Below, piece by piece: positions 1,199-61,772 of a stretch of DNA of 64,000 nt. Position numbers and translations under genes: made by a program. How positions within the stretch are numbered: the first letter of the stretch is position 1; the number at the start of each line of letters is the position of its first letter. Below the pieces are notes generated by a model. The model saw nothing but the letters and a program-made list of their open reading frames with translations. It searched no databases and was not told where the DNA came from. The stretch comes from Ginglymostoma cirratum (lineage: Eukaryota), in NCBI GenBank assembly GCA_024137785.1, contig JAHRHZ010000009.1:13869477-13933476 (forward strand), read 5' to 3'.

Positions 1199-1317
1199 AT
1201 GATGTGGAGGTGCTGGTGTCGGACTGGGGTGGACAAGGTCAAAAATCACACGACACCAGGTTATAGTCCAACAGGTTTATTTGAAATCGCAAGCTTTCGA
1301 AACTCAGCTCCTTTCTC
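1199..1317 (-). mobile_element. Penelope-type terminal fragment (family 2)
   Basis: gacaccaggttatagtccaacaggtttatttgaaatc is shared with the palindromic element at 54287-54501. Confidence 0.6.
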
Positions 1318-2660
1318 ATAGTGTGAGAGACAGGGTATAAGGCACAGAACTTACAAGTGTTTTTACATTTCTGCTTCTAAATTCCGTGACTTATACCAGA
1401 TCCAGGGCTGATGGACTCGAGACACACCCGGCATTGAGAAAATTAGAGAACCTGAATTCCTATAGAGCCTTTCGTCACTACAGAACATTCCAAAGTGTTT
1501 CACAGCTGGTGCAGTACTGATTTGAAATCTGGGCACTCGTAAATTAGGATACTCATCATCCAACATGTGCACAGCAAGACCCCATAAACATTAACAAGAT
1601 AATGGACAGTTATTTGCTTTTTTTTAAAATGATGTTTGTTGAGGAATAAATATTTGGCGGAAGTCTGGGACTAATGTCCTCCTGTTTGTTTCCAAAACAT
1701 GTGTTGGGAGGTCTGTTGGGATTTTGGTTTAACATGGAGTCTCGCACATAGAGGATCTCTACTCGTCCCCATGCTTGAAACATAAAATAAAGTCCAATCC
1801 TGTATTAGGACAGGAATAAAGCCAACGCGGTGATAGTGTTCAATAAAATACGAGGCTGAGGATGTGCAATGATTGTGCTCTTCCTGGTAGCTCATCCAGT
1901 TCCACATTCTGTGTGATAAATATTTTGCCTGGAGTGTGTAAGAGTGTTGCCAACTCGGGCTGGACAGATTCCTAGAGTTTTAACCACATGACCTTCCACC
2001 TCCTTTGGTCCCACTACTGGCCACCTAACATAGTCACCGTCACAGCCCCCGTCCCTCTGTCATCCCATCGGAAACAAGCAGACTCGTCTTTACCCGGTTA
2101 AATGGTTGTTAACAGCTTTTTAAAGCTCTCGCATTCCTGGATCCAGATCCAGTCACCCTGAGCAGATTGCAGACAGCAGACAGAACATCAAAACCTTAAA
2201 GCTGAAACTTTATCAGCACAACAAAAAGAACAGGGAGAAAGCTAGCTACAGGAGCTTGAGAACACTCTTACTGCTAAGTACTTGGTTTCAGACTCTGGTA
2301 AAAGCACAAGCCCTTCATAAGTTGTTTCACATGCTTACGGTGAGATGGAGAAGCCAGTTACAGCTGCAGCTTCAATTGCCAAGTAAGAAAATTGTGGTTT
2401 GTATTGACTTAGAAACCAGAGTTATACTAATTCCCAGGTACAGTAGGCATAGGGCATCTACAACTACTTTCTGAAGGGCAACAAGTGGTGTGCAATATGT
2501 GTCAACCTTGCCACTGATACCCACACTCTGAGAATGAATTAAAAAAGGAACTGGAACATAAAGCAGAGGCCAGCTGTCTTTTGGTGTTGATCTAAATGAT
2601 GGTGATTGGAAGAAATAAGGATTATTCTTTTTTCCCTCTCTGGTCCTTTTCTCGGTACTG

Positions 2661-15564: not shown

Positions 15565-15654
15565 GGAGCAATAGGTTTACCTGGTTTTGCGGGGCCCATA
15601 GGAATGCCTGGATTCCCAGGAGTTGAAGGTCCCGCTGGCCCGTTGGGATCGAAG
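15565..15654 (+). CDS. collagen IV alpha chain exon 3 (7S domain)
   Basis: ttttcag|...|gtgatc; 90 nt; GAIGLPGFAGPIGMPGFPGVEGPAGPLGSK. Confidence 0.95.
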
Positions 15655-25786: not shown

Positions 25787-26218
25787 TTTGTTTGATTTGA
25801 ATTGATTTGATTTATTATCGTCACATGTACCAAGATACAAGTGAAAAGTATTGTTTTGCATGCGATCCAGACAATTCACACCTTGCATAAATGCATCAGG
25901 GTAATAGAACAGAATGCAGAATATTGTGTTACAGCTACAGAGAAGATGCAGAGAAAGATCAGCTGTAATATATCTGAGGTCTGTTCATAAGTCTGATAAG
26001 AACAGGGAAGAAGCCGTTCTTAAATCTATTGGTATGTGTTTCCAAGTTTTTGTAGCCTCTGCCCAAAGGGAGAGGGTATAAGCAAGTATAACTGTGGTGG
26101 GAGGAGTCTTTGATGATGTTGGCTGCTTTCCCAAGGCAGTGGGAAGTGTAGATGGAGTCATTGGAAGGAAGGCTGGTTTTCGTGATGGACTGGATTATGT
26201 TCACAACTCTCTGTAATA
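25787..26218 (-). mobile_element. Rex1/Babar LINE 3' fragment
   Basis: ORF SITKTSLPSNDSIYTSHCLGKAANIIKDSSH...NRFKNGFFP resembles the Rex1 RT C-terminus; (aaatc)n tail. Confidence 0.75.
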
Positions 26219-29562: not shown

Positions 29563-29831
29563 GTAAGTCCTGAACTTAGCCTTTCATTCGCCACCAGTCT
29601 TAGACTGACTGATAACACCTAGATACTGCACTTACTCTAACTGAAACCATTAACCTACACTTAATGACTTGAGCTTTTAAAAATCCTTGCGCCAAGGGAA
29701 ATTATTGTGCTGCCTGTAACTGATAGCATGGTCCTTCCAAGTGGCAGCACGCAGTGAGTCAAGAATTTAATATTCCTGTTGATTCAAGGACTCAGTGTGA
29801 ACCCCTCTCTCAACAGAAATTGGTGCAACAC

Positions 29832-29994
29832 AGTGTGAAGCTGGAGGAACACGGCAAATTCAGAAATTTCTGAAGAAGGGTCCCAACTCGAAACGTCAGC
29901 TTTCCTGCTCCTCTGATGCTGCCTGGCCTGCTGTGTTCCTCCAGCTCCACACTGTGTTATCTCTGACTCCACCATCTGCAGTTCTTACTATCTC
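29832..29994 (+). mobile_element. partly palindromic Penelope-terminus element
   Basis: CTGAAGA...CGAAACGTC at 29870-29897; short inverted 5' arm; TSD ttggtg(c/t)aacac at 29820-29831 and 29995-30006. Confidence 0.75.
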
Positions 29995-30290
29995 TTGGTG
30001 TAACACTACATTATTCTGAAGGATCTGGCCATTGTTGGTGGCTATTTAAGAGGGAGTTAACCAGGAGCTGTACAAGCCATCCACAGGAAGCTATGTAACA
30101 CGTTCTGAGAGGCACCCAGAGTGCTGCTGACACACTCCGACGGCAAGTGGTATCTGTGCTGACTGAATTCATCTGTCAAAAGTTAGAGTTCAAGAGAGAA
30201 TTAGACATAATGACAGGAGAATGGCCAGTTAGAGCAGGAAGGTTGCGAATGTTTGGAATTGTCTATCAGACAGCCAGCATAATCCTGTGA

Positions 30291-30491
30291 GATAGTAGGA
30301 ACTGCCGATGCTGGAGTCTGAGATAACAGCAGTGTGGAGCTGGAGGAACACAGCAGGCCAGGCAGCATCAAAGGAGCAGGAATGCTGATGTTTTGGGTCT
30401 GAAGAAGGATCCAGATCTGAAACGTCAGCTTTCCTGCTCCTCTGATGCTGCCTGGCCTGCTGTGTTCATCCAGCTCTACACCTCGTTATCT
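30291..30491. mobile_element. palindromic Penelope-terminus element
   Basis: Two inverted copies of the Penelope terminus; TSD cagca(t/c)aat(c/g)ctgtga at 30275-30290 and 30492-30507. Confidence 0.8.
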
Positions 30492-30630
30492 CAGCACAAT
30501 GCTGTGACCCCTTCAGATTGTATTTGAATGTCAACTGAGAGAAGACAATTTTAAAGATGTTTTTGGAGCTTTAAATACCAAGCGTTGGTGAAAACTGAGA
30601 AAATTACTCTTGTTTTGTTTTATTTTATAG

Positions 30631-49350: not shown

Positions 49351-50037
49351 AATTTAAAAAAAGCTTTGGCAAAACCTCCCTCCAGCCATTACTAAAGAAA
49401 TTGCTTACAAAACAGTTATAAGCATAACTGACTATTTGATCCATCCAGTCTAAGTCAAAGTTTACCCTCCATCTCGCAAACATTGCTAATTATGTTTTCA
49501 TCCTGTTCGCACACCTCACCATACACCTATTCCTTCATACACCTCTATACTCCAGTTTAAATGTTGACTCCATTTCTGCCTCAACTCCTAACACTGGGAG
49601 AGAATTCTACACCTCGCTACTCTCACTGCAAAAGGACCCGTCACTTGCTCTCTCTTAAAAATATCTTATATTTAATCTTCTATCAATTTCTCTTCATTCA
49701 TGAATCCTACAATTGGGAACAGTCTACTTCTATTGACCCTTTCGCAACTTTTCATCGCTTTAAAAACTTTGTTCATAATGGGTTGTAATCCCTGTCAAAA
49801 AAACTCAACATTTTAGATCATTCTTGATGTCATATTTCTCACCCTAGCTAGTATCTCAGTGAATCTACATTTTTTCCATCTCTGAAACTCCATGATCTTT
49901 TCTGTCGCAAGAACCTGAATTTTCCACAATTGTTGCTGATCCAGCTACACTGCCTCACTCACTGAACACTGAATCAATAGCCTGAAGAACTTGAGAAAGG
50001 ATGTCAGTCATTCATGTCCAGCCTTTCTTTGTGGCAG

Positions 50038-50135
50038 GTGCACCCGGAATTCAAGGAATGCCAGGTCTTCCTGGAGCTTCAGGACAGCCAGGGAATGATG
50101 GCATCCCAGGCCAACCAGGACCCCCAGGATCAAAG
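50038..50135 (+). CDS. collagen IV alpha chain exon 29
   Basis: tggcag|...|gtcagt; 98 nt; (G)[32 protein letters not shown]. Confidence 0.95.
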
Positions 50136-52660: not shown

Positions 52661-52853
52661 CTCAAGTTATGAATCTACTGTTGATCTCGTTTTTTGTATA
52701 CCGTTTTTGCAGCTGTAACTTTGTACGCCTTCCTCTGTTCAATCAGCCTATGATTGTTGTGTCTTTGTATGTTATGATCTGCTGTGCTGCATGCAAAACA
52801 AAACTTTTCACTGTACTTCAGTATATGTGCCAATAATATATCAAATCAAATCC

Positions 52854-53235
52854 AGGCAGCATCCAGAGGAAAGGAGCAGTCAATGTTTTGGGTATAACCC
52901 TTCTTCAGGACTATGGTAGTTCAGTGGTAGAATTCTTGCCTCCCACCTCCCAGGAAGCCTGGGTTCGATTTCGGGCCAGTGCATAGCTATCCTTTCTTTG
53001 TGTGAGTCCCTTCCTCACTGCCACCTCCCTCAGATGTGAACTTAGTGAGTCCCTTTCTCACTGCCACGCTGGAGCCCTGAAGAAGGGTAATACCCGAAAC
53101 GTTGGCTGCTCCTTTCCTCCAGATACTGTCAGGATTTGATTTGATTTGATATATTATTGTTACATATGCAATGTTCTTCCAGCTTCCTGTCTGTCTACCT
53201 TGGATTCCAGCATCCGCAGTTTTTTTGTCTCTAAC
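52854..53235 (+). mobile_element. composite element: inverted Penelope terminus + tRNA-Gly-derived head + linker + Penelope terminus with hammerhead
   Basis: TSD caaatcaaatcc at 52842-52853 and 53236-53247; see findings. Confidence 0.7.
52913..52983 (+). pseudogene. tRNA-Gly(CCC)-derived pseudogene / SINE head
   Basis: tggtagttcagtggtagaattcttgcctcccac...cctgggttcgatttcgggccagtgca matches recalled vertebrate tRNA-Gly (TGGTGGTTCAGTGGTAGAATTCTCGCCTCCCAC...CCCGGGTTCRATTCCCGGCCAATGCA); anticodon arm disrupted. Confidence 0.8.
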
Positions 53236-53384
53236 CAAATCAAATCCTGTTTCTCGTTGCTGTGCTTCAATGTTTCACTTGAGATGGAAAGTTTTTAGGA
53301 TAAAGTGTACACATGAAAGACCAAATGGGTTCCTCTGCTGTAAGAGGTTACCATTTTAACCAACCTATTGTTTGTCAAATTCAG

Positions 53385-53535
53385 GGACAACCAGGTGTGG
53401 GACTACCTGGCCCCCGGGGATTTCCAGGTGCCCCAGGACTACATGGAGTTCAAGGAGATAAAGGTGACCCAGGAATCCCTGGAATACCAGGACCACCAGG
53501 AAACCCTGGCTTACCTGGCCTCCCAGGTGATACAG
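53385..53535 (+). CDS. collagen IV alpha chain exon 30
   Basis: attcag|...|gtgagc; 151 nt; [15 protein letters not shown]...GLPGDT(G). Confidence 0.95.
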
Positions 53536-54286
53536 GTGAGCAATAGGCCCAATGAAAGGTGCACGAAATGAACTTCAGTTGTACCTATAAAGTGAGAGCT
53601 CGAAAGGAAATTAGGTTCTGTTTCTCAAGTTCTTTTAAAAATCACTTCGAAAGTCACTTCATGAATGTCAACGGGCTCCTTAAGTCATAATTTACGGTCA
53701 GTGCTGTAATGGAGGGAGCCATTACTCTCAGTTAATTAGCTAGTTAATTAATTGGTTAGTTAGCAATGTACAAATAGAGGACAAGATCTCGCCGACTACA
53801 TTTTCTGCACTACACCTTAATGGACAATTCCAATCAAGACATCTCCACTGGTTTCTCAATAGTCACCACAGATGTTAATGATACTATACGTCATCAAATC
53901 TCATTAAAACGTAACAGATTATAATTCTGCACTTTTGATGACAACGCTTTGAAACTGCCTCAAAAGCAGCTGTTCACATTCAAGTGTCTTTGCTCCCTTT
54001 CCTTTAATAGCACACCCCTGGTTACAGAAAGCTGCACTCTGCACTTATTCACAGGCATGGAGCTTCACCAAGCCAGCCATGGCCCTGGGTTTGTTGGCTG
54101 AGCTCTAATCTGGCACAGAAGCACAAATCAAAAACTGCTTGTGAGTCTCCTTCACCCCTGCTCACAGCTGAGCTGAGCTATTAATGGTTTCTTCCAAACT
54201 CCCACAGCCTCCACAAATTTTCCTGAGCCCTAACTCTAACATTAACAGTACCTACTGACTCCTAGACCACTTTTGAGTTTTGATTG

Positions 54287-54501
54287 TGTCAGAAGTCATA
54301 TGACACCAGGTTATAGTCCAACAGGTTTATTTGAAATCACAAGCTTCTGGAGTGCTGCTCCTTCGTCAGGACCCACTTCACCTGATGAAGGAGCAGAGCT
54401 CCTGAAGCTTGTGATTTCAAATAAACCTGGTGAGCTATAACCTGGTGTCACCTGACTTCTGACTTTGTCCGCCCCAGTACAACAAAGGCACTTCCACATC
54501 A
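54287..54501. mobile_element. palindromic Penelope-terminus element (family 2)
   Basis: Inverted arms; TCAC-CTGATGA-A-GGAGC-aga-GCTCC-tgAAG-CTT-GTGA at 54378-54414; TSD tgagtt(t/c)tgattg at 54274-54286 and 54502-54514. Confidence 0.8.
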
Positions 54502-58688: not shown

Positions 58689-59578
58689 GTCAGTGTGTAC
58701 ATTCTTTTCCAAGCTTGTTTTGATTGATATCATGTCAACTGGAAGTACATTATATCTTGTGATATTTTGGGAGGTTGCGTTTGGCAATGCATGCTTGTGT
58801 CACAGGAAATAGTTGATTATTCAATATAAAAGAAAGAGCTTGCATTTAAATAGCATCTATTGCAAAATCGGGACATCCCAGAAACTTTATGGGGGTGGCA
58901 AGGGAGAGGAATGTTGTTGTAATATTTTCTGCATTGATAATAGACACATACGTTTTTGAAAACAAAATTGGCATTCCTTGTGACGAACGTTCTGTGGACC
59001 TGTGCACCCATCCTTTAATCTCTATCTTCTGTTTGGCAAAGCTGCATTGAATGCTCCATGTCAGAATGAAACCATTTTGTATGATACCATCTCAGTCTCA
59101 CTTAACATTCCCTCCAGCATTCTCAGCTCCTTGCTGTCCCCTCGTCATGCTTCATGTATGTCCACCCTCACCACGTCCCTGCTTCATTTTTCAAAGCTCA
59201 TTCTCAGGATATAGGTGTTATTGCCCATCATCTTTCACTGAACTACCTTCTTGAAACCCTGAAATCCATAGGGACAGCCACAGCTGTTCTAGGAGCCTCA
59301 CCCAATGACAGTCAAGAGATGACTATGTAATTTCAAATTAGGAGGGTGTGTGACTCAGAGGGTGGTGTCCCCATATGTCTGCTGCTCTTGGTGAGTGTCA
59401 CAAAGAATCTTTTGAACTGTGAAGTTAGCCAAAATGCTCTTTTTGACCATGTGTATTTCTGTGCTCAGAAATATATATTGTCAAATAAAGTTGCCATGTT
59501 TAATCAGGGATTGAGCTCCATGCGATGGTCTCAGATTAGAATAGAAGGTGATCATTAGGTTTCACTAAACTATTGCCT

Positions 59579-59652
59579 GTCTCTGTGGCGCAATAGGCTA
59601 GTGCATCTGGCCCTTAACCAGATGGTTGGTGGTTTGAGACCATCCAGAGACA
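59579..59652 (+). tRNA. tRNA-Asn-derived gene/pseudogene with CTT anticodon
   Basis: Full cloverleaf: acceptor GTCTCTG/CAGAGAC, D GCGC/GTGC, anticodon TCTGG/CCAGA with loop CCCTTAA, T GGTGG/CCATC with loop TTTGAGA; T5 run at 59665-59669. Confidence 0.6.
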
Positions 59653-59669
59653 AAGTGCATGCTCTTTTT

Positions 59670-59948
59670 GGGTGGCTCAATGGTTAGCACTGCTGCCTCA
59701 CAGCACCAGGGACCTGGGTTTGATTCCACCCTTGGGTGACTGTCTGTGTGGAGTTTGCACATTCTCCCTGTGTCTGAATGGGTTTCCTCTCAAAGTCCAA
59801 AGATGTGCAGGTGAGGTGGATTGGCCATAGGAAATTGCCCAGTGTTCAGGGAGGTGTAGATCCGGGGGATGGGTCTGGGTGGGATTCTCTGAGGGTCAGT
59901 GTGGGCTTGTTGGGCTGAAAGGCCTGTTCCCACACTGTCGGGATTCTA
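59670..59948 (+). mobile_element. HE1-like SINE
   Basis: ggtggctcaatggttagcactgctgcctcacagcaccagggacctggg head and V-domain. Confidence 0.85.
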
Positions 59949-61104: not shown

Positions 61105-61772
61105 GAAGGGAAGGCATCATTTCATTGGAGGCAGCTCAGAAAACATTCACTGGGATGATCCCTGGTCTGGAGGGACTGTCTTATGAGCAACGATTAAACA
61201 GGTTGAGACTCTACTCAGTTCTGAGGAAGGGCCACCGGACCCGAAACGTCAACTGTTTTTCCCTTCAGAGATGCTGCCAGACCTGCTCAGCTTTTCCAGC
61301 AACTTCTGTTTTTGTTCCTGATTTACAACATCCACAGTTCTTTTGTTTTTTATTGAGACTTTATTCATTTGAATTTAGAAGAATGTGAAGTGATCCCATT
61401 GAAATATATAGAATTTTTAAGGGGCTCGACAGGGTAAATGCTGAGGTGATCTTTCCCCTCATGAGAGGATAAAAGACCACAGGGTATAGACTAGGAATAA
61501 AGGGGAGCCAAGACTGAGATGAGGAGCAATTTCTTCTCTCAGAGGGTTGTGAGTCTTTGAAATTCCTTGTCACAGAGATCTGTGGGGATAGAGTCCTTGT
61601 GTATATTTCTGCTGAGACAGATTCTTGATCGGTCGAAGAATCATAGGTGATGGGGAAAGTGTATGTAGGAAAGTGACCATGAGGAATGTCAGAGCAACCA
61701 TGATCCTTTTGAATGGTAGAGCAGGCTGGAGGGGCTGAATGGCCTATTCCTGCTCCTATTTCTTATGGCCTT
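61105..61772 (+). mobile_element. CR1 LINE 3' fragment interrupted by a Penelope-terminus element
   Basis: EAAQKTFTGMIPGLEGLSYEQRLNRLRLYS|...|FEFRRM; ggcctattcctgctcctatttcttatg tail. Confidence 0.85.
61216..61255 (+). ncRNA. minimal type I hammerhead ribozyme motif (Penelope-type)
   Basis: Stem I CAGTT/AACTG; core CTGAGGA; stem II GGGcC-accg-GaCCC; GAAAC; cleavage triplet GTC; palindromic ACGT helix III. Confidence 0.65.

Follow-up and report, generated by a model that had tools for sequence, protein, structure and literature searches.

Penelope-like elements commonly come with inverted arms, with tails and in non-autonomous forms (PMC8557442), and a minimal, loop-III-less hammerhead ribozyme is known from them, which is inactive as a monomer and which occurs in opposite-strand pairs 100–700 bp apart (PMC4209133). 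Monomeric minimal ribozymes have been described as inactive or protein-assisted (PMC4209133; PMC11167929), and Penelope-like elements have been proposed as the mobilisers of animal retrozymes (PMC7761336; bioRxiv 10.64898/2026.07.22.740005). In schistosomes the SINE-like element Sm-alpha, which derives from tRNA-Gln and is transcribed by Pol III, carries a hammerhead (PMC2770079; PMC4918200; PMC6765202; PMC8490949), so that the pairing of tRNA and hammerhead, which an earlier note on the present DNA did not know to be described, is already on record. Chimeras between tRNA and LINE-1 have been described (bioRxiv 10.1101/2025.02.02.635956), and in Adineta vaga unrelated sequence lies between pLTRs within a TSD (PMC3846280).

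Here, we describe an old, decayed Penelope insertion within a collagen intron, in which a tRNA-Gly-like piece lies between mirror-image ribozyme-bearing ends. The analysis covers a stretch of 64,000 nucleotides, hereafter the window, and all positions are those of the window. The focal insertion is real, unusual, chimeric and decayed; neither a SINE with a recognisable Penelope terminus nor the focal unit itself was found in searches of the open-licence literature.

Structure of the insertion

The insertion sits in the intron between the exons near 50037–50135 and at 53385–53537, with its hammerhead strand sense to the collagen gene (Gly-X-Y exons, + strand). About 28 Gly-X-Y exons with interruptions, at 15565–63776 on the + strand, make up this one gene, whose pattern is presumably type IV-like. 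The target was the 3' end of a LINE-like repeat with an (AAATC)n tail, of which the window holds two copies, one being the target and the other lying at 25799–25960 (minus); they agree at 83% over 65 nt (25799–25863), and the alignment reaches further upstream. The coordinates of all features are given in Table 1.

Table 1. Features of the focal insertion, its target and the adjacent exon
Feature	Position	Strand	Basis or remark
Pre-existing target: dispersed LINE-like repeat 3' end, (AAATC)n terminus	52690..52853	+	Related copy at 25799–25863 minus
Left TSD	52842..52853	+	12/12 identical to 53236–53247
Inverted Penelope terminus, 3'-shortened	52852..52912	-	51/61 against right arm; 2-nt TSD overlap
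tRNA-Gly-derived head, nt 5 to discriminator	52914..52983	+	Rfam 20.9 bits; by-eye tRNA-Gly comparison
9-nt trailer and interrupted T tract (T3-C-T3)	52984..52999	+	Sequence, T-run list
Linker repeat copy 1	53002..53024	+	Small hairpin and GCC anticodon-loop word
Linker repeat copy 2 region	53031..53077	+	Copy 2 = 53045–53067, within longer hairpin
Minimal type I hammerhead	53073..53107	+	Motif scan, fold, covariation over 9 window copies
Penelope terminus past ribozyme, first part	53108..53133	+	Aligned to other window termini
Inverted copy of left flank 52823–52851 plus one extra 5-nt unit	53134..53167	-	27/29 identical
Resumed Penelope terminus including optional ~35-nt tail	53165..53235	+	Alignment to intact tails
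Right TSD	53236..53247	+	12/12 identical to 52842–52853
Collagen exon 3' of insertion	53385..53537	+	Pfam Collagen E 5.6e-9

The earlier note had described a 12-bp TSD enclosing four parts. The duplication itself is confirmed, its word being the (AAATC)n end of the upstream repeat; within the window the 12-mer occurs at two sites only on the + strand and once on the minus strand, inside the flank copy. We found six parts rather than four, and the inverted repeat extends 30 nt past the left TSD into the flank. That the TSD is a mere part of the inverted repeat can be ruled out, since its word recurs in direct orientation, on its own, after the tail at 53236. An inverted Penelope terminus, likewise claimed before, is borne out by the match of 52852/4–52912 to 53073–53133, and the whole inverted repeat (52823–52912 against 53073–53167, 82%) is longer than first described. 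Its inner 61 nt are Penelope-type, with 10 mismatches of which four are CpG-like sites and two form a compensatory helix I pair, and its outer 29 nt are left flank, with two mismatches and one extra 5-nt unit.

The Penelope end that forms the right arm is complete and holds the inverted flank copy, a local fold-back scar. The net insert in its tail amounts to 31 nt, and the same gap appears against the intact tails at 29870 and 61221, which belong to other families; alignments to 39444 and 30399 are less clean. After the flank copy the tail resumes to about 53232–53235 and includes the optional segment of ~35 nt that some window Penelope copies have and others do not. Since the flank copy includes the TSD together with the junction found at the left end, it was made after that junction existed; we infer that intrastrand fold-back of the top strand explains it. 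The divergence of the paired parts (0/12, 1/23, 2/29 and 10/61) marks an old insertion.

A glycine origin of the tRNA-derived head is supported by its comparison, made by eye, with printed vertebrate tRNA-Gly(GCC), which gives 55 identities in 64 aligned nt (30/33 over 52914–52946 and 25/31 over 52953–52983; PMC4529699, PMC11277137). The earlier assignment to tRNA-Gly(CCC) thus stands as to Gly, and as to CCC the signals are divided, since the anticodon loop (52940–52946) reads CCC and the variable loop is nearer to GCC. Rfam scores 52910–52983 as a tRNA at 20.9 bits (E 0.11), below the gathering cut-off of 29; ARAGORN and an Rfam scan at the gathering threshold made no tRNA call at the head, ARAGORN's only tRNA in the window being a tRNA-Lys at 59578, and the head folds no better than its shuffles (z 0.70). 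A 6-nt duplication (52947–52952) takes the place of the 3' anticodon stem, and the end of the left arm stands where tRNA nt 1–4 are absent. By the Pol III box consensus and tRNA numbering that we assumed for the head, the A box (52917–52927) conforms and is retained as had been reported, whereas the B box (52962–52972) is not fully so, with T at position 52971 (tRNA C61). The T3-C-T3 tract after the head looks like a broken Pol III terminator; for comparison, the tRNA-Lys of the window has a short trailer and then T5.

The window also contains a common tRNA-derived SINE with at least seven heads (near 2900, 6770, 16100, 38470, 51050, 56480 and 59670), which we take to be V-SINE-like. Its heads have the T-arm region in common with the focal head and not the Gly D-arm; that the focal head is one of them was ruled out, as they have no Gly D-arm and acceptor matches. 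The segment at 59578–59800 consists of a tRNA-Lys(CTT) copy, which scores 53.5 bits in Rfam and has a short trailer and T5, and of a SINE head directly after it; it is possibly a tRNA retrocopy or a composite.

Between head and hammerhead, the linker holds the 23-bp direct repeat noted before, and its two copies (53002–53024 and 53045–53067) are identical at 22 of 23 positions, a level reached in 0 of 100 shuffles. A hairpin is predicted for each copy; the longer one (53031–53077) has z −2.5, with 1 of 200 shuffles as good, over a segment picked after the fold had been seen. Its 3' side (53061–53074), which is fused to the hammerhead, is a remnant of the anticodon loop, 3' stem and variable loop of tRNA-Gly(GCC), matching the printed tRNA by eye at 13 of 14 positions. 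In a post hoc test this match was equalled in 12 of 20000 shuffles of the window's own head and linker, and in a tRNA-Lys control over 1300 window tiles no tile reached 13 and two reached 14, presumably the tRNA-Lys itself. The head of the window aligned to the linker without significance (268/2000 shuffles); the remnant is detectable only against the published intact tRNA, because the anticodon arm of the head is rearranged. We read the linker as an apparently older, restructured tRNA-Gly unit, partly duplicated and ending at a short similarity to the Penelope start. Its best match elsewhere in the window (score 43) lies inside the shuffled range (3/30 at or above), and Rfam, at gathering and E-value thresholds, gave no family, matches to algC and snR40 being chance. 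The linker repeat had no exact match in prokaryotic genomes, which is uninformative on an animal repeat, and BLAST against phages and plasmids returned weak pieces only, three of five phage rows lying on tRNA D-arms.

The hammerhead and its relatives in the window

The hammerhead core, which the earlier note had called intact, is so by sequence. Helix I is formed by 53073–76 and 53104–07 and helix II by 53085–88 and 53092–95, and the core comprises 53077–83 and 53096–99; loop III is absent, the triplet is GUU, and the predicted cut lies after 53103. Rfam reported no hammerhead match for 53073–53107 at gathering or E-value thresholds; a core motif scan of the window gave 12 matches, 53077–53100 among them. 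Helices I and II are retained across nine aligned arms, with 88.9% of cells paired and four pairs showing two-sided change (levels equalled in 0–5 of 500 shuffles; slid controls did not exceed 47%). This alignment consisted of nine window copies and excluded three further hammerhead-bearing arms (family with the longer helix II). One compensatory pair in helix I distinguishes the two focal arms, and helix I spans the linker-to-hammerhead junction without a mismatch; the minimal hammerhead of the left arm is damaged, its GAAA box being changed in the arm alignment. The ribozyme alone folds no better than shuffles (z −1.55), and its helices then have predicted pairing probabilities of 0.5–0.66. 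Within a head-to-tail RNA these drop to <0.01, and they are 0 within the host pre-mRNA, where the arms are predicted to form a single long hairpin (z −12.7). We assign these ends to Penelope, as a putative label, on the ribozyme type and on an architecture like that described in PMC4209133 and PMC8557442.

The window has Penelope-type ends at 11 loci, four of them head-to-head. Among these four the focal locus alone has a long foreign centre, and the other three centres measure ~4–14 nt. The three are ordinary palindromes (30289–30494, with a tail on the left arm only; 54288–54463; 29827–29997). A solo mini-copy of ~138 bp (61217–61354; 61205–61366 with its TSDs) has a 12-bp TSD with 10/12 identity. 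Both focal arms and this mini-copy start 4 nt before the core, which suggests a recurrent 5' end, either an RNA start or an RT stop. A second Penelope-type family, at 1231–1322 (minus) and 54288–54470, has a longer helix II, a 2-nt palindromic helix III and decayed cores.

One-off chimera or SINE family

What kind of RNA gave rise to the two parts? The evidence supports one insertion, made by Penelope, that carries a segment with a tRNA-Gly head oriented like the hammerhead strand, and the earlier note had offered for it either a tRNA-headed element using Penelope machinery or a one-off template-switch chimera. The second fits better: our best explanation, which we hold with about even confidence, is that on one occasion, within the usual head-to-head structure, Penelope RT came to the end of a short Penelope RNA and went on along a Pol III RNA with a tRNA-Gly head. 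A single TSD encloses both the small-RNA part and the retroelement end. The first T4+ run after the head is a T7 at 53220–53226, 9 nt from the end of the element and before its last Penelope-homologous bases. A Pol III transcript alone would stop there and lack the copied end, and unless the T7 is younger than the insertion, that end came from an RNA not made by Pol III; an internal oligo-T has been used elsewhere as an argument against Pol III transcription (PMC4494074). Work on an Anolis element found RT to begin at two internal sites delimiting the tail, to extend both strands of the target and to require RNA beyond those sites (PMC11167929). This start rule would apply here by extrapolation from the lizard Poseidon element; together with the T7 it favours a Penelope RNA as template of the 3' part, and another RNA as template of the 5' part. 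That the segment begins at tRNA nt 5, lies in sense and has a broken T tract speaks for a Pol III read-through RNA as this second template. The head is in sense from tRNA nt 5, and the 160 nt from head to junction contain no terminator, weak evidence when taken alone, as 62% of 93-nt tiles have no T4 run anyway. The compensatory helix I difference between the arms would be expected of two different RNAs.

Several features nonetheless count against the one-off chimera and for a Penelope-dependent SINE family, an unlikely though considerable possibility in which a Pol III-transcribed master (tRNA-Gly head, composite linker and Penelope hammerhead-tail) was copied in trans and the left arm and flank copy were local additions. 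Head, body and tail follow in sense, the 5' end lies at most 4 nt from tRNA +1, and the terminator-like tract is broken at the one base whose change removes every T4. The linker with its second tRNA-Gly remnant seems to have arisen in several steps (a diverged tRNA-Gly unit, a new hairpin and a duplication), which would match the evolution of a SINE master, and helix I, kept perfect at the junction, is what a replicating master would show. The T7 may postdate the insertion, one tail of the focal family having been seen, and Sm-alpha offers a precedent in its published descriptions. Were there such a family, the composite head could, on the same rather low expectation, consist of one young and two old tRNA-Gly units, and it is conceivable, though somewhat doubtful, that the tRNA remnant supplied the 5' strand of helix I, which selection then re-paired.

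Against a family stand the T7 before the copied end and, following the Anolis work, internal RT initiation, by which copies lose the binding site. Kojima's test of a SINE against a repeated chimera also points away from it, because plain Penelope termini are abundant in the window. No second head-linker copy occurs within the 64-kb window, an absence that excludes very high copy numbers only, and all seven of the next-best window matches to the head that were inspected are heads of another SINE type without the focal linker. The weak predicted pairing of the hammerhead helices in head-to-tail RNA speaks in the same direction. As a SINE would, the locus has a head that derives from a gene transcribed by Pol III and has an A box and a B box (the latter altered at C61), and a TSD with a 3' end common to the partner retroelement that aligns with other window termini; a SINE would also be free of an internal Pol III terminator, and here the T7 is present. 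We did not file the insertion as a SINE because of this terminator and because the copy number covers the 64-kb window only.

The one-off chimera could have formed as follows. An endonuclease would have cut the AT-rich microsatellite end with the 12-nt stagger that the TSD records, and RT, primed by the right end, would have begun on a Penelope RNA at its outer start site. It would then have copied the tail and the hammerhead to 4 nt before the core; the extent is visible in the insertion and the order is our reconstruction. At the short AG-CC similarity it may have switched template to a Pol III-type RNA, probably composed of the young tRNA-Gly head and the older, duplicated tRNA-Gly(GCC) remnant, and copied this almost to its first base. 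From the left end, a shorter second cDNA would have been made on a different Penelope RNA, and this would have produced the usual head-to-head arm. During completion or later the top strand presumably folded back on the left arm, copied the ~31 nt of flank now present as an insert, and returned.

Could the centre instead have been added later? A head-to-head Penelope palindrome might have come first and the tRNA-linker been patched into its centre, for example by repair of a cruciform break, since the arms end symmetrically there, leave a near-perfect palindrome when the insert is removed, and carry in the fold-back scar a mark of an unstable locus. We consider this order of events quite improbable: the head-linker is surrounded by no duplication and no poly(A) or simple-repeat tail, it starts at tRNA nt 5 and ends, in sense, at the short similarity to the Penelope start, and elsewhere in the window such centres are short and intact. 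The complete tRNA 3' end with short trailer and T-rich tract gives the segment the look of a gene with its flank, and such captures have been described (PMC3846280); a genomic tRNA-Gly locus (gene, trailer, terminator and neighbouring pseudogene) that lay beside a Penelope end and was mobilised when a different promoter read through it would also account for the sequence beyond the T7. This capture, analogous to the pLTR-framed host DNA of rotifers and predicting one or a few copies, leaves the 5' edge at tRNA nt 5 and the centrally broken T tract unexplained and seems highly improbable to us.

The focal copy is old and, by prediction, inert, with a decayed promoter and a dimer- or protein-dependent type of ribozyme buried in a pre-mRNA hairpin. 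If it arose only once, the steps of a Penelope integration can be read from it: two primed ends, a fixed run-off 4 nt before the ribozyme core, the switch to a Pol III RNA and the fold-back copying of flank. In that case it shows how a SINE with a Penelope tail could arise, and why a T run and an internal RT start would usually stop it. If it belongs to a family, SINE partnerships would extend from LINEs to Penelope with direct sequence evidence, where Sm-alpha merely suggests them; a vertebrate SINE with a Penelope-like partner would offer Penelope RT a substrate in trans that is both natural and minimal, and such trans-mobilisation is testable in the existing in vitro system.

Comparison with known systems

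The closest layout is that of truncated head-to-head Penelope-like insertions with minimal hammerheads (PMC4209133; PMC8557442; PMC3846280). The focal locus has in common with them the inverted 5' arm, the TSD, the microsatellite or AT-rich target, the optional tail of 30–40 nt on one arm and the opposite-strand minimal hammerheads 100–700 bp apart. A minimal hammerhead in a terminal repeat, an inverted truncated arm, an optional tail and a TSD, by which a Penelope insertion is recognised, are all present. It differs from these insertions in its tRNA-headed foreign centre and in the inverted flank copy within the right tail.

The schistosome non-LTR retrozymes Sm-alpha and Sj-alpha, as described, likewise combine a tRNA-derived Pol III head with a type I hammerhead; they are tRNA-Gln-derived, high-copy and often tandem, with an active canonical ribozyme, whereas the focal unit is one monomer in a decayed state, its ribozyme minimal and its Penelope terminus recognisable. 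The tandem units with complete hammerheads that define a retrozyme are absent, as there is one same-strand hammerhead and the opposite-strand one is damaged. Among the consensus sequences of the retrozyme preprint (bioRxiv 10.64898/2026.07.22.740005) is a cartilaginous fish, and the focal unit may be among them. In Adineta vaga, too, unrelated host sequence lies between Penelope terminal repeats inside a TSD; what its published description shows, however, are genes or long spacers between direct pLTRs, in contrast to 160 nt between inverted arms here.

Finally, the retrocopies that join small RNAs to LINE-1 by a template switch (U6/L1, tRNA/L1 and Alu/L1; PMC4494074; bioRxiv 10.1101/2025.02.02.635956) resemble the focal insertion in placing a small RNA 5' of a retroelement 3' end within one TSD, and those with U6 and Alu are in sense orientation, as here. 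The tRNA/L1 chimeras reported are mostly antisense halves (bioRxiv 10.1101/2025.02.02.635956), whereas the focal insertion holds a near-full tRNA and 90 nt of trailer in sense, and its partner is Penelope, not L1. In conclusion, the focal insertion probably works like a small-RNA/retroelement chimera with a SINE-like layout.
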